Origin: Eledone cirrhosa
Taxonomy: Eukaryota
Length of the DNA stretch: 64,000 bases
NCBI GenBank assembly: GCA_964016885.1
Contig: OZ024746.1
Location: 41,106,001 to 41,170,000, forward strand
Direction: 5' to 3'
The translations under genes were made by a program, and so were the position numbers. Position 1 is the first letter of the stretch. Each line of letters starts with the position of its first letter. Positions 11,741 to 59,432 of the stretch are shown one piece after another. The notes under the pieces are model-generated. The model made no database searches, was not told the origin of the DNA, and was given only the letters and a program-made list of their open reading frames with translations.

Positions 11741-12439
11741 ATGGAAAGAAACAATGCAGTTATTAATAAAGAAGTTGAAATTATTGCTTGCAAAATTTCA
11801 CGGCTCTAGCATCACTCCTTTGTATATGTAAGTCATCTTTGTTGAATCTCTTGCTTGACTATAGAATATATTGTTCACACCATCACCATTTTATATCCAT
11901 AACCCTTGCTGGCATGTTTTGTCACATTCTGAGACTAAACTGGTCATATGTTCATCTTGTTCATATGTTCCATATTTGGCATAGTTTTTTTAATGTCTGG
12001 ATGCCTTCTTAACACCAACCAATTTACTGTGTGTAGTGATTATTTTTTAGAGTGGACTGGGTGTTTTATAGTGGTATCAGCATGGGACATAAACAAACAT
12101 TACTAGTCACCTTAAGTTTCGTTGATATGAAGACATACTTATACATATAGCATAATCATCATTTTTATGTATTTTCTCTAGTTTGAGATTAGACAGGTCA
12201 GAGAACCTCATCTTGCTCATGTTTTTGAGCATGTTTTCTATAGGTGGATGACCTTTTAAACACCAACTACTTAACAGATGGGATGGTATGGAGTAATGGA
12301 GGGTGTGAATTGTAGCTACTACATGATTTGTTACTTGTAGGTAGTTGATTAAACACGCACACACACACACACACACACGTATATATATATATACACACAC
12401 ACTTAAATATATGAATGTATGTCTGTATATATGAATGTA

Positions 12440-12475
<36 letters not shown>

Positions 12476-13169
12476 CATACATACAGACATACATTCATAT
12501 ATTTAAGAGTGTGTATATATATATATATATATACACACACACTGTGTGTGTGTGTTTAATCAACTACCTACAAGTAACAAATCATGTAGTAGCTACAATT
12601 CACACCCTCCATTACTCCATACCATCCCATCTGTTAAGTAGTTGGTGTTTAAAAGGTCATCCACCTATAGAAAACATGCTCAAAAACATGAGCAAGATGA
12701 GGTTCTCTGACCTGTCTAATCTCAAACTAGAGAAAATACATAAAAATGATGATTATGCTATATGTATAAGTATGTCTTCATATCAACGAAACTTAAGGTG
12801 ACTAGTAATGTTTGTTTATGTCCCATGCTGGTACCACTATAAAACACCCAGTCCACTCTAAAAAATAATCACTACACACAGTAAATTGGTTGGTGTTAAG
12901 AAGGCATCCAGACATTAAAAAAACTATGCCAAATATGGAACATATGAACAAGATGCAGTGACCTGACCAGTTTAGTCTCAGAATGTGACAAAACATGCCA
13001 GCAAGGGTTATGGATATAAAATAATAATGATGGTGATAATATATTCTATAGTCAAGCAAGAGATTCAACAAAGATGACCTACATATACAAAGGAGTGATG
13101 CTAGAGCCGTGAAATTTTGCAAGCAATAATTTCAACTCTTTACTAATAACTGCATTGTTTCTTTCCATG
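11741..13169. repeat. ~1.4-kb near-perfect palindrome centred on (TA)n
   Basis: Mirror ORFs in the track (12107..12400- vs 12415..12801+; 11788..12012+ vs 12802..13122-); arms checked by eye; centre at about 12446-12470. Confidence 0.95.
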
Positions 13170-13749
13170 GACTATCCTGAAATATTAAACCACATTTGGT
13201 CATTCCACGAGAGTATCTTGGTCAGTCTATGAAGGAGTGATGCTAGAGCTGTGAAATTTTGCATGGATTAATTTCAACTTCTTTATTAATAACTGCATTG
13301 TTTCTTTCCATGAACTATGTTGAAAAATAAACCACATTTGGTCATTCCATGAGAGTATCTTGGACAGCCTATGAACTTTTCAACCAACCCTTGACTATAA
13401 TTATAAATAAAATAAGTGTGGGTTGGTGTAAAAAATGTCTTATTTAACTTATGCCAACATGTGATGATGATGATAGATAAATACTGCAACAAATAGTGTG
13501 TTGCCAACAAATATATCTATATAGGTGAGATAATAAGTACATACATGAGATATCTATGAGTATGCAACAACTTTAGATATGAGAATATTAATACACTAAT
13601 ATCAAATACTGTACAGTAGATGATAAAGTGAAATATTTTATTTTCCTACTAATTTATTAGTGGTTAGTTTAGTACTTCTGGAAGGGTAGGTAGATGGCAA
13701 TCAATCAAGAAACTATATACTGTAGGGTTTATCTGATATGGTGTGTGGG

Positions 13750-16215: not shown

Positions 16216-16593
16216 ATCATCATCATCATTTTACGTCCGCTTTTCCCTACTTGCAAGGGTGGGACGGGAACTGATTCTGGCTTGATTTCTACAGCTGGAT
16301 GCCCTTCCTAACACCAACCTCATTTACAGTGCTTTTTTTTTTTCCGTGGCGCCTATATGTCCACTTTACAGTGTGGGCTGGGTGCTTTTTTGCCGTGGTA
16401 CCTCCACGACCACTTTGCAGTGGAATGATATGGACCCCAGTCCTATCATCTCATTTCTACAGCTGAGTAAACTGGAGCAATGTGAAATAAAGTGTCTTAC
16501 TCCAGGAAACAACACATCACATGGTCTGAGAATTGAACTCACAACCTTTTGATTGCAAGGCCAATGCTCTAACCACTAGGCCATGTGCCTCCA
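16216..16593 (-). mobile_element. CORE-like tRNA SINE, left copy of an inverted pair
   Basis: Same family as 5874-6206. Confidence 0.85.
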
Positions 16594-16631
16594 TTATATA
16601 TCATCATCAATATATATATATATATATTGAT

Positions 16632-16955
16632 GGAGGCACATGGCTTAGTGGTTAGAGCATTGGCCTTGCAATCGAAAGGTTGTGAGTTTAATTCTCAGAC
16701 CAGGTGATGTGTTGTTTCCTTGAGCAAGACACTTTATTTCACATTGCTCCAGTTTACTCAGCTGTAGAAATGAGATGGTAGGGACTGGGGTCCCTATCAG
16801 TCCACTGCAAAGTGGTCGTGGAGGTGCCACGGCAAAAAAGCACCCAGCACTCACTGTAAATGAGGTTGGTGTTAGGAAGGGCATCCAGCTGTAGAAATCA
16901 AGCCAGAATCAGTTCCCGTCCCACCCTTGCAAGCAGGGAAAAGTGGACGTAAAAA
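16632..16955 (+). mobile_element. CORE-like tRNA SINE, right copy of an inverted pair
   Basis: Head ggaggcacatggcttagtggttagagc (box A), box-B-like gtttaattc, RTE-like tail. Confidence 0.85.
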
Positions 16956-17255
16956 AAAAAAAAAAAAAAAAAATTATATATATATATATATATCTATCTA
17001 TATATCTATCTATCTATATATATATAATCTAGCTGTCGTCTGTTCTACAGTGTGGATGTCATTCACTTCGCACAGAAGTTTTGTTCAAATTTATTGAGGA
17101 AATTTTGTGAGTTCAAACTTAATTTTGATACAATTGTGTAGCTTGACCCTCCGTCTGAACTGTCAGGCGGTGGGTCAGCTCATCTTTACCCCTCCTAGAG
17201 GTGAAAAACCTGTTTTAAAAAATTTTGTGTAAAAAATTTCAATCGTCTAACAGAA

Positions 17256-19130
17256 ATGTTAAACGCAGCGAACGAAAATAGTGGTGGGGGGACAGCGGTA
17301 AGAGTTGTAAGCTCGCACGCTTTAGTCCTCCCTTCCTTCCCAACTAACGTCATAGAGAAGGAAGGAAAAATGAAAATAAAAACGGACGAATCTGCGGAGG
17401 AAAAAAAATTAAATGACGAAAACAACGAAAAAAAGAAATTTGAAAAATTGCATGACAATACTAATAACACAAACAAAGACACAACAAACAAAAAAATAAC
17501 AGTTGAAAATAACATAATATCAGAAAACAAAGCAGACGACAAGATTTCTTTTGCACAGAAAACAAAGAAATCTTTGACTTATATAGCGGAAAACATTTCA
17601 GATGTGGTACGAAGGATCACGGACGCAAAACAATACATAAGTGAAGGTGAGAATGGTATTTTATTGGTAAAAATGCCTCAAGAATTCACGAAAGACATTG
17701 AAAGCCGAACGGTCAAGTTTCGGACCATCAACAACAGTACAAAAAAACCTGAACAGCCTTCTCAAGCAGATATCAAAACAGTACTCGCAGAAGTACTGAA
17801 TGAAACAACTTTCATAAGAAAAGACAGACTGTATGGAAGCCTAGCAATTATCATGAAGAACGAATCGGCGGCAAAAAAATGTGCTTTGTCACCGATTCGT
17901 TCGAAAAATTTCACCTTTTATCCATCTTATATGGGGAAAAAAACTCAACGCATATGGCTGGATGCAATGATGCCAGATGTGGACTACTGCTGGCTCATAG
18001 CTGGCTTCATCGATCCAGTGAATGACAACGTGATTTCCATTGGGAAAACCACAGGCAATGCGTTCAGTGGAACAGGTATAGAGCTGGTAGTACAAATGAA
18101 GCCTGAACGCATCGCCCAAATACCCGACAGAATCCTATTAGAGGACCACGGGTATATAAACATTAGCGTGGAGGGGAGAAGGCCGTCCTGCCATATCTGT
18201 GCAGGCAGAGGGCACCTGAAGGCCGCTTGTCCCCAACTCAACAAAAAGAAAACCCTGCTACCAACACCAGCTCCACCACCACCACCACAACAGATAAACA
18301 AACAACAAAACTCAGTCCCACCCAACCCGTCCCTCAGTAACACCACAACACCACCACAACACAAACAGTCACAACACATTACCCCAAAACAAAATACAGG
18401 CCCACCCAACCTCTCACTCAATAAAACAACACAACCACCGCAGACACAACACACAACACAGTCTAACATAGTGACATCCATCTCCCCCACAAAGAAAACC
18501 AACACGGAAACATTACCAGCAAACATACCTCTTCCCTCCAACACTGAAGATAACCCAACGAATTCGGAGGAAGAAACGGAGTCCTTCAGACAGATTAAAA
18601 GGAAAAAAAGAAAACATGTGCAAAACACACAAGGACAAACAACCCCCACCCAAATCGCAACACAATCTAACAAAACAGAAAACACCCCTCCAGCAACAAA
18701 CAAAACCAAACCTGCCCCTCCCCTCTTCGAAACACTCACACCATCCGAAAAAAAGACATTACACTATACTTACATCAACAGAAACAATAATAAATTAAAT
18801 GAACTCATATACAATAATCCTTCGGTACAAACCGAAGGTGTAAACTTTGTTTCATCAGAAAACCACCCACATTTAAAACTAATAAAAATCCCAATGAACC
18901 TCTACCAAAAACTAAAAAAGGATTTTAAGGAGGACGTAGGACCACCCTCTGTCAAACCCATAAACCGCGTCCTACTAAAAAGCTTTCCCCCTCCCCTTCC
19001 CAACACAACTCCAAACACCCCAACCCCACCACACACCGACGACCCCACACCACCACAAGACACCCCTTCACCCAACACCCCCGACCCCATGGAAGTCGTG
19101 CAACCCGAACCCCGGGAAGCGGAAAGGTAG
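17256..19130 (+). CDS. LINE ORF1, gag-like protein with CCHC knuckle
   Basis: 624 aa; CHICAGRGHLKAAC (CX2CX4HX4C) followed by a Pro/Thr/Gln-rich tail. Confidence 0.9.
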   Translation: MLNAANENSGGGTAVRVVSSHALVLPSFPTNVIEKEGKMKIKTDESAEEKKLNDENNEKKKFEKLHDNTNNTNKDTTNKKITVENNIISENKADDKISFAQKTKKSLTYIAENISDVVRRITDAKQYISEGENGILLVKMPQEFTKDIESRTVKFRTINNSTKKPEQPSQADIKTVLAEVLNETTFIRKDRLYGSLAIIMKNESAAKKCALSPIRSKNFTFYPSYMGKKTQRIWLDAMMPDVDYCWLIAGFIDPVNDNVISIGKTTGNAFSGTGIELVVQMKPERIAQIPDRILLEDHGYINISVEGRRPSCHICAGRGHLKAACPQLNKKKTLLPTPAPPPPPQQINKQQNSVPPNPSLSNTTTPPQHKQSQHITPKQNTGPPNLSLNKTTQPPQTQHTTQSNIVTSISPTKKTNTETLPANIPLPSNTEDNPTNSEEETESFRQIKRKKRKHVQNTQGQTTPTQIATQSNKTENTPPATNKTKPAPPLFETLTPSEKKTLHYTYINRNNNKLNELIYNNPSVQTEGVNFVSSENHPHLKLIKIPMNLYQKLKKDFKEDVGPPSVKPINRVLLKSFPPPLPNTTPNTPTPPHTDDPTPPQDTPSPNTPDPMEVVQPEPREAER

Positions 19131-19163
19131 GTCTCTACACTCTCCTTTGGCTCTGCCGCCCAC

Positions 19164-22100
19164 ATGGATGTGTTAAGAGTAGGATGTTTGAATGCACGTG
19201 GCCTGGGCTCAACTTGGAAGCAAGCAAAGCTTCTAAATGACCTCAGGTCATGTAGTATAAATGTAATGGTTATCTGTGAGACTCGAATCAGCGTCATGCG
19301 GCAGCTGGCCCCCACCTTCGATGACTTTGAGGTGCATGCATCTCTCTGTCAACCTGGAGGTGGGGGTGGGGTTGTCGTGCTGCTGCAAAAACACCTGGGT
19401 CTTGCCGTACAGGTTGTGCACTCGGACCCGGAGGGTCGTTTGTTGGTGCTAGACGTTGGCAGTAGTGAAAGTGCGGCCTTGAGACTGGTCGCCGTCTACT
19501 CCCCTTTCGGAGCTGAACGGCCCGACTTCTTCCAGCGTTTGGAGACTTTTCTGGGAACGTCGCGTTCCCTGCTTCTAGCGGGGGATTGGAATGACATCCT
19601 AGATGCACGTTGGGACTATGCAGGAGCATGTCCTAATAGAGGGGGGTGTAACAGCCTCAAGGGGTTACTCGACCGTTTTAACTTGGTCGATAGATATCGA
19701 CTAGATTTTCCAACTGTGCCTACCTGGACTTGGAGAAACCACAGTGGTCAATCTAGATCGTACTTAGATAGATTCTTAGTTAGAAGTAAGGATAGGGACA
19801 TATTAAGCTGTCCAGAAATGCGCACGGTTGGCTACACGGATCACAAATTAGTGACCTGCGTGGTCAATCTCGAGAAAACACATAGACAGGGTCCCGGTTA
19901 CTGGAAACTTAATTTGTCTTTACCGGCAAAAGAGACTTACAGAAACCGGATTAGCAGATTAGTTAAGGAGAGGTTGACGGGTGCAATCGTCAACAACCGA
20001 TGGTGGGCATCTCTCAAAAGAGAGATTAGAACAGAATCAATAAGCTATAGCAAGATGTTAGCTGCCAATAGGAATAGAAACGAGAAAGAATTAACAGGTA
20101 AATTAGAAGAGGCAATCAAGAGCGAAGATGTGGCCAGAGTGCTGGCATCGAGGACGGCCTTGAACCAGTTTTTCGATGCAAAGCATGAAGGCTGCGTCAT
20201 TCGAAGTAAAATACGTGCTCTAGGTAATGAGGGGGCCAAAGCCGTTGGATGGGCCCGCGTGACAGAAGCTAAAAGTGGAAATCGATCCACCATCCGGTCG
20301 TTGCAAGACGAAGATGGACGAGTGATCCGGGAGCCTAAGCAGATGTGCGAGGCCTTTCAAAAGCACTTTGCCCAATTGTTCGGGGGAGGCGAGGGTCCGG
20401 GCCGGGGCGTGAATTTCGGTCCATACCTCGACGGCCTGCCGCGTCTCTCGAACAAAGAGGCGGAGTCCTGCGAGGGACCAATCTCGGCTGATGAGATCGG
20501 AGATGCGCTGAGCCAATGCAGCAGACGCAAATCTCCAGGTCTCGATGGTATACCTTACGAACTTTATTTAGCAATGCCGGTCTTCTTCTCCGAACTCCTC
20601 GAAGCGGTCTACTGCAATTGGCAGCAGAACGGGAGAATTCCTTGTTCTGTAGCCAAGGGCGTAGTCACGCTGGTGAGGAAGGACGAGAACAAGGGGGATA
20701 GTATAAATAATTTTCGGCCCATAACCCTGCTAAACACAGAGTTAAAGATTTTGGCCAAGGTGTTAGCAAAGAGGTTGGCGCTTGTCGTGGGTGGCCTGGT
20801 GGGAGATGCGCAGACATGTGCTATCCCATCCAGGTCCATTCACGATAACCTCCACCTCATGCGATACATCATAGAGAGGGTTGGCAACAAACCCGGCTTC
20901 GGTGGGGCCCTGATCAACTTGGATCAGTCTAAGGCCTTCGATAGGGTCGACCATGGTTACCTGGATGCGGTGCTAGCGGCGGCTGGGTTCGGTCCTGTTT
21001 TCAGAGGCTGGATCACTGCCCTACATAGCAACCACATCTGTTCTAGGATCAAGGTGAACGGCTACCTTTCGAAGCCGTTCGAAATCACACGATCCATTCG
21101 ACAGGGGTGCCCTCTCTCCTCCCTTCTGTACGTATTGACTCTCGAGCCTTTACTGAGGAAGTTGGAGTTGTTGCAGGGTATCCCCCTGGAACCAGGATTG
21201 AGCAAAGCGGTGTCGGCCTACGCCGATGACGTAACAGTAATGGTATCAACCGACTCGGAGATCGAGGCGATCGGTACCTTACTGGAGGAGTACGAAAGGT
21301 TGTCAGGAGCGAAACTGAACCGGGAAAAATCCATCGGGCTGCAACTCGGAACGTGGAGAGGCAGACCGATGCCTCCCGATGGTGTCGTCGGACACTGGAC
21401 GGAGGGCCCGGTAAAGTTGCTTGGGGTCTGGTTTGGACCGGACCTCCAGGTGGAAAAGAACTGGAACGAGGTTACGAACAAGGTGTTTGCACTAACCCAG
21501 AAATGGGCCAAGTGTAAGCTGTCCCTAAAAGGCCGGGCGGAGGTGGCGAACATTTACATAGCGTCCGTCACTTACTACCGCCTGACTGTCGTGCCTTGCC
21601 CTAAGGAAACACTCACCACCATGGAACGCATGCTCTTCCAATTTCTTTGGAAGAAGCGTCCTCCTATGGTGAGAAGATCCATCTGCTGCCAACAACCTTC
21701 GAAAGGAGGGCTGGGGATGCCGTGGTTGATGATGCGTAGGCACGCATTAAGGCTACGGCACCTACAGGTATTCCTCACTGGTCAACCGGTGTGGGCTCCG
21801 TTCGTGAAACGAGCCTTTCCGAGACTCGTCTCACTCACCGAGCTACAGTCCTGGGTCAAGCAAAGATCCGGAAAACTGGGAGACTGGCACACTGAGTGTG
21901 CTCAGGCGCTCAGGGCTCTCTGGCAAGCGGGCCGGGCCATCGGTGGAGAATCCACCTCATCATTCTATAGAGGGCTGGTGGCTAGCAGGGGCGATGACAC
22001 CCTTGGAGAGTCGCTGGACATGGAAGAAGACGAACTGGCCAGCCTGTTCGGTAGGACTTTCGGCCCAGGACCAATGGACAACTTCCAGAAGTCACTGGCC

Positions 22101-22601
22101 TGGCAGTGCTACCGAGGGGCTCTACCCGTTCGAGAGAGGCTCTACAGACACGGGCGCCCGGGCAGGGATCCCTCAAAAAAGATTTGCCCTAGATGCGTGC
22201 GTCACGAAGAAACCGTGGCGCACGCATTGGTGCAATGTCCGGGCGTGGCTGATCTGTGGGGCTACGCCGAACAACTGCTGTCGCGGGTGGCGCCGATTAA
22301 ATTGACAGCCGAGTCCGTGATGACAATCAAACCGCCTCCCCTCTTCACAAAGGAAGCAAAGGCGGTTTTTCTGTGCGTAATAGCCATGTTGAAAGAGGTT
22401 GTTTGGTGGACACGATTGAAAGGTCTGAGGTCAGGCAACTTCCTCTCTGGCCATAGTCTGGTCTACTTCTTCCGATATCACTTCGGAAGAAGGATAAGAA
22501 TGGAGAGAGAGGTGCTTGGCCACAGGCAGTTTTATGAAAGGTGGGTGATAGTGGCGAGAATGGCTCGTGTAAATGGGCCTTCTCTGTATACCATCCTGTA
22601 G
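19164..22601 (+). CDS. LINE ORF2: APE endonuclease, reverse transcriptase, C-terminal zinc finger
   Basis: 1145 aa; LNARG, GDWN, LDRF, TDH (APE); KSPGLDG, FRPITLLN, KAFDRV, RQGCPLS, YADD (RT); KGGLG; CPRC...HALVQC. Confidence 0.97.
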   Translation: MDVLRVGCLNARGLGSTWKQAKLLNDLRSCSINVMVICETRISVMRQLAPTFDDFEVHASLCQPGGGGGVVVLLQKHLGLAVQVVHSDPEGRLLVLDVGSSESAALRLVAVYSPFGAERPDFFQRLETFLGTSRSLLLAGDWNDILDARWDYAGACPNRGGCNSLKGLLDRFNLVDRYRLDFPTVPTWTWRNHSGQSRSYLDRFLVRSKDRDILSCPEMRTVGYTDHKLVTCVVNLEKTHRQGPGYWKLNLSLPAKETYRNRISRLVKERLTGAIVNNRWWASLKREIRTESISYSKMLAANRNRNEKELTGKLEEAIKSEDVARVLASRTALNQFFDAKHEGCVIRSKIRALGNEGAKAVGWARVTEAKSGNRSTIRSLQDEDGRVIREPKQMCEAFQKHFAQLFGGGEGPGRGVNFGPYLDGLPRLSNKEAESCEGPISADEIGDALSQCSRRKSPGLDGIPYELYLAMPVFFSELLEAVYCNWQQNGRIPCSVAKGVVTLVRKDENKGDSINNFRPITLLNTELKILAKVLAKRLALVVGGLVGDAQTCAIPSRSIHDNLHLMRYIIERVGNKPGFGGALINLDQSKAFDRVDHGYLDAVLAAAGFGPVFRGWITALHSNHICSRIKVNGYLSKPFEITRSIRQGCPLSSLLYVLTLEPLLRKLELLQGIPLEPGLSKAVSAYADDVTVMVSTDSEIEAIGTLLEEYERLSGAKLNREKSIGLQLGTWRGRPMPPDGVVGHWTEGPVKLLGVWFGPDLQVEKNWNEVTNKVFALTQKWAKCKLSLKGRAEVANIYIASVTYYRLTVVPCPKETLTTMERMLFQFLWKKRPPMVRRSICCQQPSKGGLGMPWLMMRRHALRLRHLQVFLTGQPVWAPFVKRAFPRLVSLTELQSWVKQRSGKLGDWHTECAQALRALWQAGRAIGGESTSSFYRGLVASRGDDTLGESLDMEEDELASLFGRTFGPGPMDNFQKSLAWQCYRGALPVRERLYRHGRPGRDPSKKICPRCVRHEETVAHALVQCPGVADLWGYAEQLLSRVAPIKLTAESVMTIKPPPLFTKEAKAVFLCVIAMLKEVVWWTRLKGLRSGNFLSGHSLVYFFRYHFGRRIRMEREVLGHRQFYERWVIVARMARVNGPSLYTIL

Positions 22602-24148: not shown

Positions 24149-24238
24149 GTGTGTTATATGTGTGTGTGTTATATGTAAAAAAAAAAAAAAAAAAAAAAAA
24201 AAACGGTGAAGAAGGACTGGCAACTTTACCCTCTAGAT

Positions 24239-26457
24239 CAGGGGTCACCAAACCACGGCCCGCGACGTCAGTTCATCAGGCCCGCCGACGGTACTTGCAT
24301 TTGCGTGATAAAATGGATGGAACACGAGATGTTTCTAATTCAATGTCTTTTTCATTTTCAGGTCCCGTTTTCTTCACTCTTTATTATGGTTACTAAGAAA
24401 AGAAAAGTGGACGCCGAGTGTCGCATTTTCAATGAAGAATGGGGAGTAAAGTACTTCTTTGTGGAAACAAAGGACCAGAAAGCTAGTTGCGTGGTATGCA
24501 GCGAAAGTGTTGCCGTTTTGAAAGAGTACAATCTTTGGCGTCACTATGAAACAAAACATCTATCAACATATTCAAAGTTTTCTGGAAAGTTATGCTCTGA
24601 GAAATATGAGTCCATGAAATGTGGTTTAGAAACTCAAAGAAATCTCTTTACGAGAAAGTTTGCTGAAAATGAATGTCACTCGTACAAGTTACAAAATAGT
24701 GCCAGGAAAACCGTTTACTGATGGCAACTTCATCAAAGAGTGTATGATGGAAGCAGCAAATGACTTGTGCCCTGAGAAAGCCGATTTGTTTGGAAGTATC
24801 AGCCTTTCGGCAAGTTCAGTTGTGCGAAGAACAGAAGAACTTGGAGAGAACATAGTGCTACAGATATGCGAGAAAGCTAGGAACTTGTTGTGGTATTCTC
24901 TGGCGCTGGATGAGTCTACTGATCTCGAGTACGTCACAACTTCTCGTGTTCATTTGTGGTGTCAATTTGGACTTTCAGATAACGGAAGAGTTGGCATCCG
25001 TTTGCTGCATGCATGGAACAACAACTGGAAAAGACATTTTCATGGAAGTGCAGAAAACTTTGCAAGACTATAACCTTCAGTGGAATCAGCTTCGAGGTGT
25101 TATAGTTGATGGTGGGAAAAACATGGCTGGAGTGAGGTAGGGTCTGGTCGGGCAGATCAAGACTCAGTTGGAAGATTTGCAAATTCCGGGCGCTCTGTTC
25201 ATACATCAGCAAGCACTCTGTGGGAAAGGCTTGGATATTTCTTGTGTACTGAAACCAGTCGTTTCTGCTGTGAACTTCATTCGGGGACATGCACTCAATC
25301 ACCGTCAGTTCCAGGCTTTTCTTGAAGAAATTGATTCTGATTTCTGTGACTTGCCTTATCACACAGCAGTGAGGTGGCTCAGCTGCGGTAAAGTCCTGTT
25401 TCATTTTTACAAGCTCCGAAACGAAATAGATGTTTTTCTCACTGAAAAAGATATAGCTGATCCACAGCTGTTAGATCCTACCTGACTGTCAAAGTTGTCA
25501 GTTTTGGTCGACATCACATTCCACATGAATGAACTGAACTTGAAACTTCAGAGAAAGGATAACCTCGTCTGTGATCTCTACAGAATCATCAAAGGATTTT
25601 GGAGAAAGCTGTCATTGTTTGAAGCACAACTGGAAGGAGAAAACTCATTTTCACTGTTTCAAAGAGTTTTGTGCTACAATTGCTGAAGATGTCAACTTCG
25701 ATTTTCCTAAAAAGATTATTCGCGACTTGAAGCATTTTTTTGGAGAGATTTTTAGATCTTGACAAAATTGAGAGTGACATTCTTCTGTTCCAGAATCCGT
25801 TTGATTGTAACCTTGATGATGTGCCAGTTGAACTACAGTTGGAGCTCATTGAGTTGCAAGCAAATGACTTGTTGAAAGAAGCACAGAGAAGGAAAACTTG
25901 TTGCATTTTACCGCTTCTTACCTGATGTTGAGTTTCCGAAATTGAAGAAATTTGCCACTGGTATGGCATCATTGTTTGGAACAACTTATGTCTGTGAGCA
26001 AACATTTTCAAAAATGAAGTATGTGAAGTCAACACATCGAACGAGATTGACTGATGAACATTTGAAAGCAATTCTCTTGATTGGATGCAGCAATTCCAAA
26101 CCAAACATTGATGATATCTTGAAAGCAAAACGTCAGTTTCACAAATCTCACTAACCTTTTTTGCTGCTTAGTTTGTAAGATTCAGATATGTGCACACTAG
26201 GTCTGATGTAACTATATTTTTGCTAATGTCGCCTTCTTTGATAACTTTTTAGTAAATAAATATGTTGGTTGTCTTTGTTTTTTGTGCATTGCACGCCACT
26301 CGCCCATGATTAACATGGAATGCTAAACGTAGTGTTTCGTCTTTTGTCCCAGAGCTTTCGTTCTGGCTTGCAAGTATTGAACAGAATGATTATGCGGCCC
26401 GCGCTCGTCATTCTTTCAGTTATCCGGCCCACTGTGGAAAACGTTTGGTGATCCCTG
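24239..26457 (+). mobile_element. hAT (Buster/Charlie/SPIN-like) DNA transposon
   Basis: TIRs caggggtcaccaaac / gtttggtgatccctg; perfect 8-bp TSD ctctagat at 24231-24238 and 26458-26465. Confidence 0.95.
24386..26154 (+). pseudogene. Disrupted hAT transposase (GTF2IRD2/SPIN-like)
   Basis: Fragments in different frames: KKRKVDAECRIF, BED-like CVVC..HYETKH, SLALDESTD, HTAVRWLS, FGTTYVCEQTFSKMK; several stops and frameshifts. Confidence 0.92.
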
Positions 26458-28077
26458 CTCTAGATGAATAATGCAAGCAATCGTTTTGTAAATATGTAAT
26501 GATACTACATGAAACTGAATTAGCAATAAAATCTAAAAAAAAGTACTTCAGATTGAAAATTAATGTCTTTTACTCAATATCATATTCTCACAGTAATCTG
26601 TCCTCTAATAATGATACAATAAATCTTTGAATTAACAAACTTTGTATTTAGATATTTTCTGCTAAATCACTACAGGATGTTATGAGTTAACACTTTAGCA
26701 TTTAAACTAGCTGTATCCGGCCAAAATTCTCTCACCACTTCTGTTCAAACCAGCTGTAACTGGTTACTCATACTGATGTTAAGGGATTTTTCTCAATATT
26801 GAATCTATGAGATTTTGATATTTATTTTATGTGAGGTAAAGCCTATAAAAATATAATAGTAAATATAGAGTAATGTAAATGGTAAAGGGCTAAAGCAATT
26901 GACAGAGTTATTAGGGTGTTGTACTAAAAGCACTGCAGTATTCGTTCCAGCTATCTGCTTTCTGAGTTCAAGTCCTATAAAGGTCAACTTCACTTTTCAC
27001 TCTTTCAGCATCAATAAAATAAAGTACCAATTTTAGGTAGTGGATTGACAAAACTGTTTGAGTGTCAGACAAGATGCTTTAGTAGCTTTTAGCAGAGTTC
27101 ACTCTGTTGCATATCATTTGAACCATGTCTCCAATTCAAGGAAATTTTCCTTCTTCCATCCCTCCTGAGCAGTCTCAGAGACCCTGAAAAAAGTTATGTG
27201 TACTGCCCTTCCTGACTAAAGCGGTAAAAAAATTTTTTAAAAAGGGCTAAAGAGCTATGGCAAAAATTAAAAAAATATAATTTTTCTCAATGCCATCTGG
27301 TGGCATCCAGAGGTATTAAATGGGCCAAAGGCAGATTTATCTAGCATATATAATCCTTTAGGTACAGGAGCAGAGAAAATTCCACCACCTTGTTCCATTT
27401 CATTTTCAAGTTCTAGGACCAAAGGTGCAATATTCCCTACATCAAATGGAATATCTTATACAAGGTACCTCCTGACTATCCCAGAGGCCACTACTCCTAG
27501 CTTTATCCCTGCAAGAGTTGCACACATTGCAGCAACCTCCAAAATCCATCAACAAGAAAACCATGTTAACATTTTGCTGTCAGCAGAGAAATATGCGCAA
27601 GGTGGTTAGCCCTTATTCTCAAATCAGCATACCAAAATAAGATCTGCAATTTCCAGTAACATCATATACACCAAATGAATGTTTATCCTCATGCCAATAC
27701 CAGAATGATGCACTCATTGATCCTGCAACACCAGATCCCCAGACCACTGTTTATAAGCAACTACCTATTAACTCTGTTGGAATAGATTATTGAGTACCAT
27801 AAGCCACTGTGTTGTAAATATTGATTGCACAGATTAAAACCTCATGTCACCTTAGTGGATATCATAAACCAATGTGTTGTAAATATTCACTGCACAATTT
27901 AAACTAGAATAAAGCAAAATGAATACTTCTTTGAAAGAGGGATGACTAAAAAAGAGGAGAGGGTATCGGTACTCAAAATCCCAAAATAAGAATATTGTAA
28001 CAAATATATTGTTTTGCAAGCTTTGTAAAGTAATATATCAACTATGAGAGAAAATCAAACAAAAACCATTTACTTAC

Positions 28078-28379
28078 TCGTCTTGGTAACGGTACTCATA
28101 AGCAAACAATAAGACAATTGCTAGAATAAATAGGATGATAAAACTTGTCCAATGTAAAACTGATTTCACATATCTAAGGTTGAAGCAGTGAAGTTGTTCA
28201 GTAATTTTCCTTGATCGAAGAGAATTTTCAGCAAATTGTACTTCAGTTAGCAGTTCTTCATAGAATGTTAATAGAGCATGTTTTGTGGTGAACCCAACTT
28301 GTTCCTCTTGAGGCTTTTCACCACATGTAGAATGGTTGGAGCCCTCCTCTTTTGGAGAAACAGGGTCATGGCTTGGCAT
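28078..28379 (-). CDS. TMEM94: TMEM94-like membrane protein, first coding exon (MPSHDP...YRYQD)
   Basis: Acceptor tttAG before 28386, ATG at 28379, donor GA|gtaagt at 28077 (phase 2). Contains GFTTKHALLTF and the hydrophobic SVLHWTSFIILFILAIVLLFAY. Phase matches the next exon. Confidence 0.8.
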
Positions 28380-32521: not shown

Positions 32522-34808
32522 AAGTGAAATTTGTTTTTCCTATTGCTTTTATGTATTTTGAATGAATATGAGGTTCAAAATTATTAGAAATTGGTAAAAA
32601 AAAATGGAGTTGTGAAACAAAAACCATACTTTAAACAACACTTAAATCATATATTACAACTTTATAAATATATTCTCCACTCATGAGAATTTCAAAACTG
32701 CCATCTAAACAATGTGTTGATTAGCTGCCTCAGCATATATACAGGATTTGGATTTTTGCCCATTTCTGAGACATAAAATGGGGTGGGGTTTATAAAGTAT
32801 ATTTAGTACTTGACATACATGTCACTGAAGAGAGCAACCCCCTCTCTCAAAATCACAGGTCTATGCCTGCCTCCCCCCTCCATTTTGGCCTATAACCAGC
32901 CTGTTCTCTAAATTTGAGGTTTTATACCTATGAGGTTGCATCTCATAGGTCTTTTGGGTGTAATAATAATGGCCCAAGGTCTATGATGACACCATTTCTG
33001 CAGTGACAGGAGGTGGGATCTGAACTCAGAAAGCACAAGGTTGGAATAGATTCTGTAAAACATCTCAGTCAATGATCTAACAAATCCACCAATCCACTGT
33101 CCTGGATTGGTACCTTACTGACCTTGAAAGGTTAAAAAGTAAAGTTGACCATGCCAAGATTGTTCATGGCCTTAAGTCCAGCTGCAGATTTGCACGATCT
33201 GCAGCAAATGTGACAGACAAAAGATGTACCCTCTAATGGGTTGATTGGGCCAGTTTTTTGGATGTCATCCTTATGTACCCTCATATGCCTGTTAAGACCA
33301 GAGCAATGCCTATATACTCATAACCCAAACATAAATTATATTTATTTAACATTATATATTATATACCAAATGAGCAATTTGAAATGGGACCTATATTTCA
33401 TATCTGGTCTGGGCATTTTACCTGCTTTGCATGGCACTGGGTATAGTCAATTAGATCAACATCAGTACTAAACTAGTACCCATTTTATTGACCACCCTAA
33501 CAATCTTGCCAACCAATTATCCTTTCTATTACTAATGAATAAATTTATCTCGACACCAGAATTAGACATCTTTTTTTCTCTTCACACTTGGATTTTTTTC
33601 TCCACAATATTGGCGGTTCAAACTGCTGGAACATATATGCACAAGCCAAGTATGTTTAACCTTTCTAATGCCAAACAGCCCCTAGTTCTATGATACGAAA
33701 TTGTGTATCTTAAAATAAATTTATCTTAAAATTTAGCATAATTTATGTAAGAAATATTAAGTCATGTTCTAAAGTTTTATATTACTAAATCCTTTCAAGT
33801 TCTTTATTTTCAAAATGATTTTAAAATATCTAGAAATAAGGTACCCAAAGGTTTAAGATATATACTTGTAACAAACAAAAGATCTTTCCAGGCTCATGCA
33901 AAAATAGATTTGGGTGATAGACTTAAATCATCAAGCAGTTTAATCTTTTTATCACCTTATTTCTAATGAAAGAAATTGTCTGATTTTCTGATCACATTGA
34001 AAATAATTAAGAAGGATTTAGTAATATAACTTTCTTGTTATTAAGCTGGTGTTTGGAACGTAACTTAGCAACGGTTCTTACATGAAATTATGGTGGAAGG
34101 TTTTTAAAGAAATAAGCTAGCTTTGTATCATAGAACCAGAACAGTTTCAATTGAGTTGGTAATAAGGAGGTTAAACAACTATAGTATCATAGTTGTTTAA
34201 CTTCTAGTCTGCTGATTGTGCAGACATATGATCAAAATCAACCCAAAGGTGACCATCTCATCTTTTTCAGATAAAATCTATTTAGGACTACAGTAACAAA
34301 TGTTTTTTTTTCTTTTTTGGGGATGGTAGGATGTGATTTGAGAGAATATGTTTGCTATTTGAAATTATGTTTGTTATGTAGCCATTAAGGTTAAATGACT
34401 ACATACCAACACTAATTAGCTTGTTCCAATTATAGCAGAAATTTTCTGCAATAGAATCTTTGTTTTTTTTTATTAATTACATCTACACAATACATATAAA
34501 CAGAATTAGAAAACCAAAAACAAAAAAAGTATTGAGTTATAAACCTAGAGAAAGCAGTGAGAAAAATCAATCTTCAACCCTACCACATTTCAATATTAAA
34601 CTAATGGGTGTTGAAGGAAACAAACAATAGATGATAATGTCCATCTGCTATAAGAGCTAAATTCTCTTGTGGAAAACTCATGAAACTATGCAATAAAAGT
34701 TAATGCGTAATCAATTTTGTAGTAACATGCACTATGGTAGTGACCCAGTTTGTTTCTGCAAAGTTTTGAGATATAAAGAGACACACATGCTCTCCCTTTC
34801 TGTCTATC

Positions 34809-34841
<33 letters not shown>

Positions 34842-34940
34842 ATATATAACGGAGGAAATGTGGTAAGGAGCCAGGTGGACCATAACGCACCAAAGTACTC
34901 AATACTTAGGGTAGTAGAGTGGGTAATAGGAACGAGTAGG

Positions 34941-35036
34941 ACCCCGACGGCTGAGCTCAAGCTGTTTCAACGGCTAATTCTGGACTAAATGAAAATTTTT
35001 ATCCTGGTATTTGAATAGCCGAGCTTCTCAAGGAGT
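34941..35036 (-). ncRNA. Second, slightly mutated copy of the U3-A8 hammerhead
   Basis: Reverse complement of 35624-35719 with three substitutions in stems; core TTGAGAA / GAAA / GTC retained. Confidence 0.6.
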
Positions 35037-35623
35037 AATTCCATATATGGTAAAAGTGATTGTCACAAGGATTGGTCAAAAGTTTGTTGTTGAGACATAA
35101 TTCTATCATGGTAATTTGTGGAGGGAAGGGGTAGCTGAACCTGCCAGTAGGTTGACCCGTCACCATAAGATATACTCGGTTTATTACTTATACCTCTTAA
35201 AAGGGTCTCACTATATAATTCCGTCCCACCTAGTAAACCTTTCTTTAGCAGTACCAGTGAGAGACTTGATAGCTGTCCTTAGGTCGTAGTAACCAGAAAT
35301 TGTTTATTTATTTATTTTTTTTATTTTTTTATTACATTTAATTGCTTTTTAACACACTCAGTATTTTTTTTATATATTTACCCCATACTATTTTACTTAT
35401 TGTTTCGACTTCCTCCCCCTCCCTAGTATCTTCTTTGACCTCATGCCCAGCTGTAGTCGGCACTATCAACGCATGACTGGGTCTGCTCCACCCCTCTCCC
35501 TTTCTCCTACTGGCAGGTTCAGCTACTCCTCCCCTCCACAAATTGCCATGATAGAATTATTATGTCTCAACAACAAACTTTTGACCAATCCTTGTGACAA
35601 TCACTTTTACCATATATGGAATT

Positions 35624-35719
35624 ACCCCTTGAGAAGCTCGGCTATTCAAATACCAGGATAAAAATTTTCATTTAGTCCAGAATTAGCCGTCGAAACGGCT
35701 TGAGCTCAGCCGTCGGGGT
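35624..35719 (+). ncRNA. Type I hammerhead ribozyme, U3-A8 core variant, long stem II
   Basis: acccc TTGAGAA g..cggcta-[long loop]-tagccg.c GAAA cggct-tgagctc-agccg TC ggggt; GUC site at 35712-35714. Confidence 0.72.
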
Positions 35720-35729
35720 CCTACTCGTT

Positions 35730-35771
<42 letters not shown>

Positions 35772-35945
35772 AATTAGGTATGTAACTACAGTTATAGGCG
35801 ACATGCCGTTCAAAGCACTCAATGCTGTTATGTTGGGGTGTATCCCAGAGTTAAGGTGGCTGTACTGTGCAGAGTGTAAATACGGTAAGTAGAGTCAAAA
35901 ACAGTGTTGCAGCATATGCACAATCTTTATTGGCATATTACAATG

Positions 35946-36106
35946 GTTTCAATATCGATCAGCTCAGGGTACAATCATAATGATGGGGCCCAACTCTTCT
36001 ACATCTCCTCAGATATGCCTTTGCATACATGCATATCTGAGGAAATCTAGAAGAAGAGTGAGGCCCCGTCATTATGATTGTTCCCCGAGTTGATCGATAT
36101 TGAAAC
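35946..36106. repeat. Fold-back hairpin with ~70-bp arms, probably a palindromic MITE
   Basis: gtttcaatatcgatcagctc...tcctcagatatgc pairs with gcatatctgagga...gagttgatcgatattgaaac around a 12-nt loop. Confidence 0.85.
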
Positions 36107-39100
36107 AATGCCAATGTCTGCCAAAAAAAAGTTTTTTGGGGGATAACAATCACATTAACTGAGGAATAGGTGATAAAATGGAGGAGGAGGGAGGACAGTT
36201 TATATATGCCATCTAAATGGCTTATAGATGGGAGTTGGATTTTTACCCATTTCTCAGACATAAAACAGTGGGTAGTCTGCTTATATTTGAGTATAATAAG
36301 TAGTACTACTAGGGTCATTAATTCCTTTTTCTCACTGATTCTCTCCTTCTTTGGAATAAATTCATGAGTGTGTCAGGTCTAGTTTGAACACAAACTTTCT
36401 TCCACCAGTCGTTGAGTCTTTGAAAAAGAGCATGATACTGCTTTTTCTTTCTGTGACCATACACAATACTTAGACTGGTTGATCCTAACTATTATCATGT
36501 GTCTTATTCTTGGATGTGACCAGAGTCTCAAACTGGCCTTTGAACTATCAACCTTTTTTATTTCTATATTAATTCTACATTGCCAATGTATTTCAATTAA
36601 TTTTGAAAATATATATATATATTTGGAGGAAGTTAAAATAACTAATTGTTTCATTAGTAAGCTCAATTTTAGAACATTACTTAATAAAAATTTCTTTAAA
36701 TTATTCTGGAAGGATTTAATATAAAGATGAACATATTAAAATGAGCAATTTTATATCATAAATACATGACAATTTCAGTTGGTTTGGTATCAGAAACATT
36801 AAAGCAATATTTTTATTCAATGAATAAAAATAATGTTAAGAGACTAAAATCTTGTATTCATAGGATAAAATTTTGATTTTAGTTAACTTTTTATTGAAAT
36901 TGTATTTTATACATGTCAATATAATGAAAGAAAACTAATGAAGTAAAACATTCAGTTCAACCCACATCTCGCATACAAATCTTTCTTGTTAACAGAGAAA
37001 CAGCTGATGCCACCTCTCCCTCCCATCACCACCTCTTGCCTGCAAGTAAAATTTCATTCAAATTTGAAACATACTATAAACTTTTGAATTATCAAACCCA
37101 TATTTAGATATTTTCTACTAAATAATTACTGGATCTTAAGAGTTAAGTGATTCTTTAACCTAATATTCACAGCTGGTAGGCTTTTGACCAAAGGTTTGCC
37201 CCAATGAGATCTCATCCTACATTTACTTCAAGACAATATGTATCTTTAACCCTTTAGCATTTAAACCGGCCAGAATTCTCTCACTTTTTTCTGTTCAAAC
37301 CAGTCATAATCAGCTGCTCATACCGATGTTAAGGTATTGTTCTCAAAATAAATAATATCAAAACCTCAGATTCATTATATGAGATATGTGAGAAAGCCTT
37401 TACTGTGAAAATACAATAGTAAATATAGAGTAATGTGAATGCTAAAAGGTTAATGTTTTGTAATATTTTGAAATACTGGAATGGACCTCTGCCAGTTTCC
37501 ATAATGAGTGTTCCACCTGTCTGATCAATGGAACTTCCTGCTCATGAAATTAATGTGTATGGGGTTGAGTGTTCCACAGACGTATGTACCCATTACATAA
37601 TTCTCAGGGAAATTCAGCATGACAAGAGTGCAACAAGGCTGGCCCTTTGAATTACAAGTACAGTTCATCTGATGGACTTTCAAACAGTTTCTATTCAATT
37701 TCAATCACAAGACGTAGGTTGACATGAGGCTATGGTAAATAGTACTTGTCCAAGATGCCAAGCAGAGGGATCGAACCCAGGACCTAATGAATGCAAAGTG
37801 AACCTCTTAACCATTCAGGCACGCTGCATCCAATTTAAAATACTATAAGTTAGTACTTTCTGCTAATTATTTATTCATCATGTAACAACACAAAAACAAA
37901 ATTGTGTTGATGGACTATTTCCAGACACCCAGGGTCTCAAAGTTGCTTTCTTCTTTATCTTATTTGTCCTGCTGTATTTTCTATTGTCTGTCTTTCCTGT
38001 ATTTTACAGATGACTACCTTATTTTTACAGTGACTGGTAACAGGAATGTCAATCTGTTCAGCTATTTAGTTTATTGATTGGCAACATTTTGGTGTGTGGT
38101 CAGTTTGTTGTTTTTATTCAAAACGCAATCCCAAAGAAACGAGGGGGGTGGTTTCATGAAAATGAATATAAAAGAATCAGATACAGCAGGGTTTACACAG
38201 TAGACTAGGTTAGTGCGGTACCTGTAGTATAAACGAGGGTTGGCTGAAAGGTTCATAGGTTGACCAAGATACTCTCATGGAATGACCACATGAGGTTTAT
38301 TTTTCAACAGTCCCTGGAAAAAAACAATTCAGTTAATAATAAGAGTTGAAATTAATGCAAGCAAGACTTCACAGCTCTAGTATCACTCCATAGTCAGCCT
38401 ATGAACTTTGCAACTAACTTTGTACAATAAAGGGGCTCAATTAAAAATAAGTATGGGTTGGCGTTAAGAAGGGCATCTTGTAGTATACTGCTTCAAAAAC
38501 AGCCTAGTCTAGCTCATGCAAAAAGTGGATGTAAAAATTATGCTGATGATGAATGTATGAAATGAATTGTGTATGAGTGACTTGAGAAAACAAGAAACAT
38601 CAGTATAATATATATTATGCACACTAAAATGGGTGCATTGGTGCCATGATAAAATGGTCTCAATTCATTCTGTAAAGTGGTAGAGCTGGTGCCACAATAA
38701 AAACGATCCACTCAGCCCTGTAGAGTTGTAGTGGTGGTGCCACAATAAAATGCACCCAGTAAACACTGAAGTGGTTAGCATTATAGGATAGATGGGCATC
38801 TAGCCATAGAAACCATGCCAAAATTGGAAGTAGGAACTAGATGTGATCACCCGACCACCAGATGATTTATATATCATGATCATTTTATGTTGATTTTTCT
38901 GCGTTGGAATGAGTTAGACGACTTGTTCTGTTGTGGACAATGTTAGGTCAGGTGATCATGTCTTGCTCATACTGAACTAATTTTGGCTTGGTTTCTACAG
39001 CTGGATGCCCTTCCTAACACCAACCTCATTTACAGTGAGAACTGGGTGCTTTTCATCGTGATACCTCCACAATCACTTTACAGTGTGGGCTGGGTACCTT

Positions 39101-54520: not shown

Positions 54521-54545
54521 ATAAGTAAGGCAATCAAATAAGTAT

Positions 54546-56696
54546 AATAAGTAAGGCAATCAAAGATATGAAGACGGGTAAGGCGGCTGGGCCTTCGGAA
54601 ATAGTTGCTGAGATGCTGAAGGCATCTGGTTCGGTGGGACACACCATGGTCACCCGGATAGTTAACCAAGTCGTACAGAATGGGGTTGTTCCGAAGGAAT
54701 GGCGTAGCAGCATCATCGTTAACTGCTATAAGGGAAAAGGAGATGCCCTAGATAGGAGTAACTATAGAGGCATTAAATTAATCGACCAGGTCATGAAGGT
54801 CACGGAAAAAGTAATAGCGCAACTAATCAGAGAGAGAATTGATCTAGATGAAATGCAGTTCGGGTTTGTGTCAGGCAAAAGTACCACAGACGCTCTTTTC
54901 ATTGTACGACAACTACAGGAGAAGTACCTAGCTAAAAGTAAACCCCTATACTTAGCTTTTGTCGACTTGGAGAAAGCCTTCGACAGAGTCCCCCGTTCCA
55001 TTATCTGGTGGTCTCTTAGAAAACTAGGTGTTGACGAATGGCTTGTGAGAGCTATACAAGCCATGTATAAAGAAACAGTCAGTAAGGTTAGAATTAACAA
55101 CGAATATAGTGAAGAGTTTAGCGTAAAAGTTGGTGTCCATCAGGGCTCTGTACTTAGCCCCCTACTATTTATTATTGCCCTTCAGGCTATAACAGAGGAG
55201 TTCAAGACCGGCTGCCCATGGGAACTCCTATACGCAGATGATCTAACGCTCATAGCTGAATCAATGACCGAACTAGAGAAGAAATTCCAAACGTGGAAGC
55301 ACGGCCTAGAATCAAAAGGCCTTAAAATTAACCTGGCTAAGACTAAAGTTCTAGTTTGTAGGAAAGAAAATAAGGCGGCGGTCCCATCGGGGAAATGGCC
55401 ATGCTCAGTGTGTAGGAAAGGCGTAGGTAGAAACTCCATTTTATGTCCCAAATGCAAAGTATGGGTGCATAAAAGATGTAGTGGGATCACAGGTAAGCTA
55501 ACTAAGAACATAGATTTTACATGTGGCCGGTGCTCTGGTGCAATAAGTAGCAGCAAGTGCCCACAAAATACTAGCTCCTTCAACTGCGCAGAGGGTTCTA
55601 TAGAAATAGTGGACAGCTTCCGTTATCTGGGTGACAAAATCAGCAGTGGGGGAGGGTGCTCTGAAAGTACAGTAGCTAGAGTCAGAACTGGATGGAAAAA
55701 GTTCAGAGAGCTTATACCACTATTAGCCGCTAGAGGGTTCTCCCTAAAAATGAAAGGCAGGTTATACGATGCCTGCATACGAACAGCAATGCTGCATGGC
55801 AGTGAGACCTGGGCATTGTGTGCAGAGGATATACGCAGACTAGAGAGGAACGAAGCTTGCATGCTCCGCTGGATGTGCAATAGTAATATACGTCAACGGC
55901 AAAGCATAAACGAACTAAGGAAAAAATTAGAAATAAGAGGGATCAGATGTTGTTTACTCGAGAGAAGGCTACGTTGGTACGGTCACGTGATGCGCATGAA
56001 AGACGACAGCTGTATAACAAAGTGCAGGGCAATAAAGATAGACGGTAGCCACGGAGTAGGCAGACCCAGAAAAACATGGGACGAGCTGATAAATTCCGAC
56101 CTCACACGCTTACACCTCTCCAAGACAATGTCACTGGACCGAGACCTTTGGCGGTACTCAGTAATAGAGAAGACCCGCCTTACCTAAATACAAAGTAAAA
56201 ACCTACTACAGTCAGTAGGCACCTCTATCAAAACACACCCCCGTCCCACCACCTCCACCCCACCCACACCGCCCCTTTCAATGTAAAGTTATGTTGGTCC
56301 CACAACATCCAGGCCGAAACAAATGAGATCGTGTAGGTGTCACGACAAAAAACACACAGTCCACGCTGTAAATGTGGCCGTGTAGGCAACACGGTAAAAA
56401 CCTCCCAGCCCCACACTGTAAATGTGGTTGGTGTTAGGAAGGGCATCCAGCTGTAGAAAACCCGCCAGACAGTCCACGCTGTAATGTGGCCGTGTAGGCA
56501 ACACGGTAAAAACCTCCCAGCCCCACACTGTAAATGTGGTTGGTGTTAGGAAGGGCATCCAACTGTAGAAAACCCGCCAGACAGTCCTATGCGAGCAAGA
56601 CAACCACTCTTGCCTCAAGTGGGAAAACCCCCGTCCAAACCCATGCAAGCGTGGAACACGGACGCTAAACCTGATGATGATGATGATGATGATGAT
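54546..56696 (+). mobile_element. 5'-truncated RTE-clade LINE inserted in (TA)n
   Basis: RT ORF, 3' UTR with a ~112-bp internal duplication (56357-56586) and (gat)n tail; TA runs on both sides. Confidence 0.92.
54568..56187 (+). CDS. RTE reverse transcriptase (no endonuclease part) with PHD-like insertion
   Basis: GKAAGP, NYRGIKL, FVDLEKAFDRV, GVHQGSVLSP, YADD, FRYLG, RLRWYGHV, GRPRKTW; uninterrupted for 539 aa. Confidence 0.95.
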   Translation: MKTGKAAGPSEIVAEMLKASGSVGHTMVTRIVNQVVQNGVVPKEWRSSIIVNCYKGKGDALDRSNYRGIKLIDQVMKVTEKVIAQLIRERIDLDEMQFGFVSGKSTTDALFIVRQLQEKYLAKSKPLYLAFVDLEKAFDRVPRSIIWWSLRKLGVDEWLVRAIQAMYKETVSKVRINNEYSEEFSVKVGVHQGSVLSPLLFIIALQAITEEFKTGCPWELLYADDLTLIAESMTELEKKFQTWKHGLESKGLKINLAKTKVLVCRKENKAAVPSGKWPCSVCRKGVGRNSILCPKCKVWVHKRCSGITGKLTKNIDFTCGRCSGAISSSKCPQNTSSFNCAEGSIEIVDSFRYLGDKISSGGGCSESTVARVRTGWKKFRELIPLLAARGFSLKMKGRLYDACIRTAMLHGSETWALCAEDIRRLERNEACMLRWMCNSNIRQRQSINELRKKLEIRGIRCCLLERRLRWYGHVMRMKDDSCITKCRAIKIDGSHGVGRPRKTWDELINSDLTRLHLSKTMSLDRDLWRYSVIEKTRLT

Positions 56697-57764: not shown

Positions 57765-58338
57765 ATATATATATATAAATGTATATATAGTGTATTTTGT
57801 AATACACTGTATGCTTAATTAAAAGCATTTCAAAGACCTTATGCTATTGTTTTAGAGTAGTGACAGTCTCACTTACTTTAAGTTTTCAGCTGTCACTACT
57901 CTAAAACAATAGCATAAGGTCTTCGAAATGCTTTTAATTAAGTATACAGTGTATTGCAAAATACACTATATATACATTCATATATATATCGGTATTTCAG
58001 AGCGCCAATTCTAATTTTCAATTTCTGCTTGACCGGCAACCACTCTGTATAATCAGTTCCTGATTATTACTAGAAATTCTATAAGAATCAAACATTCATG
58101 ATTTTCAGCAAACAGGTGGAGTACATGGCTCTGATAAGTACCAATCAGTACGAAACATAGCTCTGTCAGCTTTATTTCCCCTGTTTGCTGAAAATTTAAA
58201 GTAAGTGAGACTGTCACTACTCTAAAACAATAGCATAAGGTCTTTGAAATACTTTTAATTAAGCATACAGTGTATTGCAAAATACACTATATATACATTC
58301 ATATATATATCGCTATTTCAGAGCGCCAATTCTAATTT
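57765..58338 (+). mobile_element. Penelope/retrozyme-like non-coding element, ~321-bp unit with inverted 5' copy
   Basis: 57770-57890 is inverted relative to 58187-58310; direct repeats at 57890-58017 and 58211-58338; (TA)n flanks. Confidence 0.78.
58101..58195 (+). ncRNA. Type I hammerhead fold with CUGAUAA core
   Basis: ggct CTGATAA gtac-caatca-gtac GAAA ca-tagctc-tg TC agct, closed by the long helix ttttcagcaaacagg / cctgtttgctgaaaa. Confidence 0.75.
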
Positions 58339-58357: not shown

Positions 58358-58456
<99 letters not shown>

Positions 58457-59413: not shown

Positions 59414-59432
59414 AATATCCACTTCTGCGTTT

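Follow-up and report, generated by a model that had tools for sequence, protein, structure and literature searches.

The window, that is, the whole 64,000-nucleotide stretch analysed here, contains an 885-bp feature carrying a predicted hammerhead ribozyme, and the locus raises the question of what this feature is and what its ribozyme does. The feature is almost certainly a Hydra-clade Penelope-like element (PLE), truncated at its 5' end and inserted head to head in a (TA)n tract. As an earlier note on this DNA had described, the element is embedded in (TA)n, and tracts were found at both flanks. The features referred to below are as follows.

28077..28379, minus strand: TMEM94, first coding exon; the insertion is 6.5 kb away
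34805..34848, no strand: left (TA)n target microsatellite
34849..35151, minus strand: inverted short arm, the pLTR end with a tail of ~77 nt (34849-34925)
34929..35038, minus strand: hammerhead copy in degraded form, with its core at 35025-35031 and an A.C mismatch in stem III
35151..35733, plus strand: tail-less main arm, read as the 5'-truncated 3' UTR and pLTR of a Hydra-clade PLE
35624..35719, plus strand: predicted type I hammerhead, with predicted cleavage after 35714
35672..35677, plus strand: initiator-like TTAGTC in loop II, with a predicted transcription start at A 35674
35700..35708, plus strand: loop III, which contains the TGAGCTCA palindrome, at +27..+35 relative to the predicted start
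35732..35768, no strand: right (TA)n target microsatellite

The inverted arms (34926-35151 and 35506-35734) share 96% identity over 229 nt. Judging from its position in ORF-bearing copies, the main arm begins about 600-700 nt downstream of the ORF stop. The window copy consists of the final ~580 nt of the 3' UTR and pLTR joined to a shorter, inverted and tailed arm, whose 5' end falls at a motif that recurs among arm ends, about 206 nt upstream of the predicted cleavage site. This layout is the one given in the legend of Figure 2 of PMC8557442, and the locus itself is an ordinary and probably inert copy from a known clade. An imperfect short hairpin repeat lies at 35943-36109, 200 nt to the right of the element.

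The right arm contains every listed element of a type I hammerhead. Stem I is formed by 35624-35628 and 35715-35719, the UUGAGAA core (U3-A8) occupies 35629-35635, and the G35636-C35691 pair closes a stem II domain of 56 nt. GAAA follows at 35692-35695, stem III (35695-35699/35709-35713) has 5-6 bp, and the cleavage triplet is GUC, with C17 at 35714. The type I core (U4 G5 A6 N7 x A9, G12 A13 A14, A15.1-U16.1, H17) is present with N7 free, and the variant core and oversized stem II of the earlier note are thus both found in this arm. That note had described complete hammerheads in both arms, which holds for the right arm (1.5 kcal/mol above the minimum free energy, MFE) and fails for the left, where three substitutions give a U.G pair in stem I, a G.U pair at 10.1-11.1 and an A.C mismatch in stem III, and the hammerhead fold lies 8.2 kcal/mol above the MFE. 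Unconstrained folding of the locus did not yield the hammerhead (z -0.77, +0.35 and -1.02). The comparison with hammerhead models that had been suggested came out negative, as an Rfam scan gave no hammerhead match at E<=10 in either arm, and the pLTR held no canonical CUGANGA hammerhead, its core being a variant and not absent. For the family alignment, RNAalifold preferred a non-hammerhead fold in which core and cleavage region are paired to each other; because this competing fold is favoured, ribozyme activity may need a partner RNA or protein. A partner requirement has been reported for the activity of the Poseidon_Ac ribozyme (PMC11167929). The loop III palindrome could dimerise, its predicted homoduplex having an energy of -32.1 kcal/mol.

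The ends of genomic copies were mapped relative to C17, numbered 0. Exact genomic matches numbered 50,268 for the 3' half of the ribozyme, 33,622 for the tail and 8,843 for the 5' core; the ratio of 3' half to 5' core is rough, since the patterns are unequal in length and degeneracy. Arms were sampled at 78 loci from the start of contig C1 (all places but the final two among the first 100 listed matches to the 3'-half pattern) and at a further 30 of 100 listed tail matches. The former sample demands one arm reaching -30, whereas the latter does not. Of 182 unique arms, 113 had their 5' end within a 14-nt interval of loop II (-47..-34), as did 15/30 of the tail-ascertained arms. Base-level mapping over all sampled loci covered 174 arms without the 5' half, 135 of them with a template: 44 ended at -40/-39, 24 at -41..-44 and 5 farther upstream, the remainder trailing to -30, so that the -40/-39 peak has a sharp upstream edge. 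In the older subfamily D, 36/39 arms ended at -43..-33 despite a different loop. Read-derived DNA contigs increased in depth about 30-fold across the loop II boundary in one sample (runs X3-X5, which may be the source of the assembly and are not independent of it).

The modal end, -40 (35674), is the A of TTAGTY/TTYAGTY, and TTAGTC/TCAGTY variants occur at this position. Among 34 hand-picked representatives the A and T of the motif were invariant (34/34), the remaining variation being Y, K and Y, and columns -68..-44 were mostly variable. The Drosophila initiator has the consensus TCAKTY, which the motif resembles in sequence, and TCAGTC is given as an initiator example in Table 1 of PMC6472829. 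CGAAA lies at +18..+22 from the predicted start with G at +24, and TGAGCT at +28..+33 would make a poor DPE. Taken together, it is likely that the oversized loop II holds the transcription start of the element; for the narrower step, that the motif acts as an initiator, we put the chances at about even. A second 5'-end hotspot, CTACTGG, was observed behind a pyrimidine tract about 206 nt upstream of the cleavage site in 6/89 long arms (35151 in the window, and L008, L030, L072, L093 and L098), and is possibly a minor start site.

A further set of copies begins at the predicted cleavage site. A pattern that leaves -10..+1 free and excludes most intact copies had 1,940 genomic matches. Among 30 loci obtained with the cleavage-site pattern, 7 were intact and 23 truncated; the latter started at +1 (9 loci), 0 (2), +2 (4) and each of -1..-4 (1 each), and microhomology shared with the other arm left 4 ambiguous at -6. 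When 100 of the 1,940 matches were classified by hand, 23 started at +1, 8 at 0, 6 at +2, 2 at -1, 5 at -2 and up to 8 at -3/-4, with 10 ambiguous, 4 deletions and 34 intact. The +1 peak fits run-off of the reverse transcriptase (RT) from ribozyme-cut RNA, and cleavage itself is a step that could as well be wrong as right. Neither copies beginning at a PLE cleavage site nor a transcription start inside a PLE hammerhead was found reported in the literature covered, which comprised search listings, the papers cited here and a small part of their supplements.

The strongest competing explanation accepts the same element and reads both the -40 hotspot and the +1 peak as sites where the RT stalls at RNA structure or a bound protein, rather than as RNA ends, much as at a boundary such as the template boundary of telomerase. 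Stalling also fits because both peaks coincide with helices: the hotspot lies inside stem II, on the 3' strand of its predicted inner hairpin, and +1 falls at the stem III base. A cap test, moreover, gave no excess of untemplated G at the hotspot (5/19 ends at -40 and 6/25 at -39). However, the inner hairpin is absent from subfamily D, which nevertheless stops at the same motif; the variation of the motif follows the initiator pattern; and the +1 peak spans a single base, few ends falling within the stem. We regard stalling as unlikely, while still the most serious competitor of the reading in which the peaks are ends of RNA molecules.

The core of the ribozyme was examined across the genome. 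The pattern of the 5' core plus stem II had 8,843 matches against 29 for a reversed control, indicating that it does not occur by chance. With nine core positions left free there were 6,743 matches (control, 273), and the first 100 listed were tallied by hand. U4 was kept in 99, G5 in 98, A6 in 100, A9 in 99 and G10.1 in 96, in line with the earlier expectation that copies keep the hammerhead core. N7 varied (G 66, T 16, A 13, C 5). Position 8 was A in 97, and position 3 was T in 72, C in 27 and G in 1. The U3-A8 core accounted for 69 of these 100 matches and the C3-A8 mismatch for 27; C3-G8 in this sequence context had 19 matches in the genome. The 3-8 states found in the family are thus U-A, U.G and C-G, together with C.A in the 27 matches just given. 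The C3-A8 lineage excepted, the conservation profile is that of a hammerhead core.

In a tree of 87 copies built with positions 3 and 8 masked (midpoint root; rough support, the bootstrap not having settled), U3.G8 was basal in both deep branches, U3-A8 arose at least twice, and C3-G8 fell within subfamily D. The 19 C3-G8 copies had been considered as an ancestral canonical subfamily and were rejected as such; those near the subfamily of the window are scattered singletons in the tree and for this reason were not counted as compensation. In the 34 representatives, 92.6% of cells were paired, above 500/500 shuffles and all slid controls. Two-sided changes were confined almost entirely to stem II and came mostly from one split (subfamily D against the rest), with almost none in stems I and III. 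The view of U3-A8 as a compensatory swap stands insofar as U3-A8 occurs with hammerhead-like core conservation, whereas strict compensation is not supported, since the C3-A8 lineage (27 of the first 100 listed matches) weakens a strict need for the 3-8 pair. The broader proposal, a type I hammerhead that is carried by a retroelement and combines U3-A8 with a long stem II, was supported by the copies.

A C3-A8 core is predicted to be impaired, and the activities expected of U3-A8 and C3-A8 rest partly on general knowledge of hammerheads. The other basis for these expectations is the C3G/G8C data in PMC11167929. A further alternative is that the hammerhead is vestigial or nearly inactive, its sequence being kept for a promoter or for protein binding. 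The C3-A8 lineage has been amplified (27 of the first 100 listed), the competing fold is equally or more stable, CGAAA at +18..+22 from the predicted start occupies the BridgeI position as described in PMC6472829, and the minimal hammerheads of PLEs are described in PMC4209133 as cleaving poorly in vitro. Against this, the 5' core, although it precedes the predicted start, is conserved with N7 alone free; the 3-8 states are mostly pairing ones (basal U.G, and U-A at least twice, under a midpoint root with rough support); and copies begin at the cleavage site. A vestigial ribozyme seems to us somewhat less probable again than stalling, and a ribozyme that is at least sometimes active is preferred here.

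The identity of the family was established from coding copies. A 132-nt query gave 1,699 first-look candidates, and 43 matches listed from the 40 scored were 98-100% identical. The DNA adjoining copies carries RT and GIY-YIG coding pieces; a query with the endonuclease had 150 matches, 14/150 of them in open frames of 784 aa, and ten genomic stretches examined contained 14 frames of >600 aa. In a tandem array, four units of 3,531 bp differ from one another at 0-1 nt. The ORF begins with ATG at +191 from C17 and encodes 717 aa, RT followed by a C-terminal GIY-YIG domain, with the motifs RWR (37), DKT (117), YRDD (348), CxCx5C (572), IY..YIG (592), CxxC (670) and CxH (698). By eye, no cysteine pair was seen in the GIY-YIG core, fitting an absence of CCHH. 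Pfam gave a weak RVT_1 match on an ORF fragment (E 0.17) and no match on the whole 717-aa ORF. The Hydra clade as defined in PMC8557442 includes an RWK motif, DKT instead of DKG, CxCx5C, CxxC and CxH. The putative assignment to this clade rests on the ORF motifs, and the (TA)n targets, pLTR, inverted arm and optional tail that mark the clade were all found. The intact verified ORFs belong to a sister subfamily, B, which is 92% identical over the pLTR end and 79% further upstream and in which the hammerhead fold is itself the MFE; a near-full copy from the window's own subfamily has two frameshifts.

The array itself (C1:437195500-437215300; L072, L073) is built from almost identical units of 3,531 bp, carries an inverted arm with a tail at its 5' end and has a tail-less 3' end, and fits copying of more than one unit from a circular or multimeric RNA. 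Other PLE families share the same (TA)n sites: by eye, a second Hydra-like family and Neptune/Naiad-like ORFs were seen (L031:2942-4330, L034, L029, L038).

These coding copies bear on the inference of the earlier note that the element belongs to a non-autonomous family of its own, which would be retrozyme- or SINE-like. The copy in the window has no coding capacity, and an ORF is missing from most copies, which are short. However, the sequence aligns collinearly with the 3' UTR of elements that have the ORF, the 5' ends of long arms are scattered, and the short palindromes have half a ribozyme, the subfamily markers of their parent and junctions that differ by locus. A retrozyme-like family was largely refuted by a tandem unit that is 3,531 bp long and coding and by short copies with half a ribozyme, and this explanation is very improbable; the sequence is the 3' UTR/pLTR of a Hydra-clade PLE with RT and GIY-YIG. 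Least probable of all is a regulatory effect of the insertion on TMEM94 through cleavage of the pre-mRNA. The ATG is 6.5 kb downstream of the insertion, which may sit within a 5' UTR intron, but the copy in the TMEM94 sense is the degraded arm, which makes an effect unlikely; this arm can also pair with its partner across 229 nt, and the insertion is one among thousands of recent ones.

The TMEM94-like gene itself is real, as its first coding exon shares 86% identity with an Octopus sinensis protein named TMEM94, a match that points to an octopod as the probable host; PDB and Atlas searches with this exon gave no match. At 50-52 kb, close to the transcript start that the earlier note had supposed near 52 kb, CpG o/e is 1.03. 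Several other repeats were observed in the window. An apparently intact two-ORF non-LTR retrotransposon, L1/Tx1-like by eye, lies at 17205-22601 (plus strand) and encodes 641 aa with a zinc knuckle and 1,156 aa with endonuclease and RT. Broken pieces of a hAT-type transposase, SPIN/Buster-like by eye, occur at 24179-26167, and an RTE-like reverse transcriptase of 552 aa with a cysteine-rich insert at 54529-56187 (plus strand). A fold-back element at 58419-58900, beside a long (TA)n, has arms of ~210 nt unrelated in sequence to the Hydra family and is probably another PLE stub; pieces of it recur at 57767-58338 and 59283-59640. Palindromes of dispersed repeats are found at 11736-13173 (1.4 kb) and 16229-16954 (0.7 kb).

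The arrangement of the arms provides the remaining evidence on how such copies arise. In 71/72 head-to-head pairs, one arm was tailed and the other tail-less, and paired arms differed by 1.95 nt on average, compared with 5.25 when shuffled (42 pairs); paired arms come from the same subfamily. Copying of one RNA from two start sites is the best account of this strict pairing and shared subfamily. A GAGYACTTT motif lies about 25 nt behind both arm ends, and in a quick test only the first folded into a hairpin.

Our overall explanation, in which a truncated PLE insertion, a start in loop II, priming at two sites and occasional self-cleavage are combined, is one we consider probable. Pol II would begin transcription at the A of the initiator-like motif, which precedes C17 by 40 nt, and yield a primary RNA with only the 3' half of the ribozyme, which for that reason could not cut itself there. 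The RT-endonuclease would nick both strands of the (TA)n target, and the RT would prime one RNA internally at both +17 and about +95, giving one tail-less and one tailed arm. Both cDNAs would usually run off the 5' end of the RNA and then join head to head, producing palindromes of ~200 bp. Read-through RNA from tandem units would hold the whole hammerhead and give long copies like that of the window; when such RNA sometimes self-cleaves, copies beginning exactly at the cleavage site would result.

A more specific model, which we put forward tentatively while leaning against it as a whole, is that the initiator in loop II splits the ribozyme, that RT copying is paired, and that genomic stubs in the tens of thousands record both capped and ribozyme-cut 5' ends of RNA. 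With the start inside the ribozyme, only read-through RNA could self-cleave. The long stem II may pair two ribozyme halves across the ends of one transcript, and a paired RT would copy one RNA from two fixed start sites onto both ends of the cut. If true, these copies would provide genomic evidence of PLE hammerhead cleavage in vivo, with the cleaved RNA as the template for transposition.

The family-wide map of ends, rather than this copy, is the valuable part of the analysis. The family shares with members of the Hydra clade such as Hydra-1_Obim (Craig et al. 2021, PMC8557442) the RWK-like and DKT motifs, CxCx5C, GIY-YIG, CxxC and CxH, as well as (TA)n targets, a hammerhead in the pLTR, an inverted 5'-truncated arm and a tail at one end, one-sided tails being described there for PLEs. 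In contrast, the unit is 3.5 kb here and <3 kb in that clade, and the Hydra hammerheads of File S2 all have a CUGA core and a stem II of 3-7 bp with a loop of 3-10 nt, whereas this family has a UUGANAA core, a 56-nt stem II domain and an initiator-like motif. The role of the PLE hammerhead is described as unclear in the same source. The end map turns that question into base-level predictions: RNA 5' ends should be capped at the A of loop II and uncapped after GUC, and each insertion should combine a tailed arm with a tail-less one.

U3-A8 in PLE hammerheads is not new, as it was published for the Cercyon PLE of Schistosoma mansoni with about 1,300 matches (PMC4209133). The minimal hammerheads treated in that paper (Cervera and de la Pena 2014) have in common with the present one the type I fold, U3-A8 covariation, G10.1-C11.1, an enlarged helix II, a palindromic loop III and opposite-strand pairs. 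They differ in that the stem III found here has 5-6 bp, making a monomer fold possible, in that loop II is far larger, and in that all four 3-8 states occur in one lineage; the family thereby supplies natural U.G, U-A, C-G and C.A pairs in one scaffold. Animal non-LTR retrozymes (bioRxiv 10.64898/2026.07.22.740005; PMC7229834) are likewise non-coding, type I and related to PLE pLTRs, but they are described as tandem monomers with whole ribozymes, whereas here a coding element has left a truncated copy.

Penelope of Drosophila virilis (Schostak et al. 2008, PMC2377424) has a comparable TATA-less internal initiator promoter in its pLTR. Its promoter description includes an RGACGTGY DPE and an intron, in contrast to the poor DPE and the predicted start inside a ribozyme of the present family. 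Poseidon_Ac of Anolis (Frangieh et al. 2024, PMC11167929) also uses two internal RT start sites that define the tail, has AT-rich targets and extends both strands; both strands are cut, and a dimer is predicted. The reported experiments on Poseidon_Ac found no strand bias of its start sites, whereas arms here pair strictly as tailed and tail-less. Insertion in vitro did not require the ribozyme in this one purified system, and none of the RNA reads stopped at its cleavage site, while in the present family it is genomic copies that pile up there.
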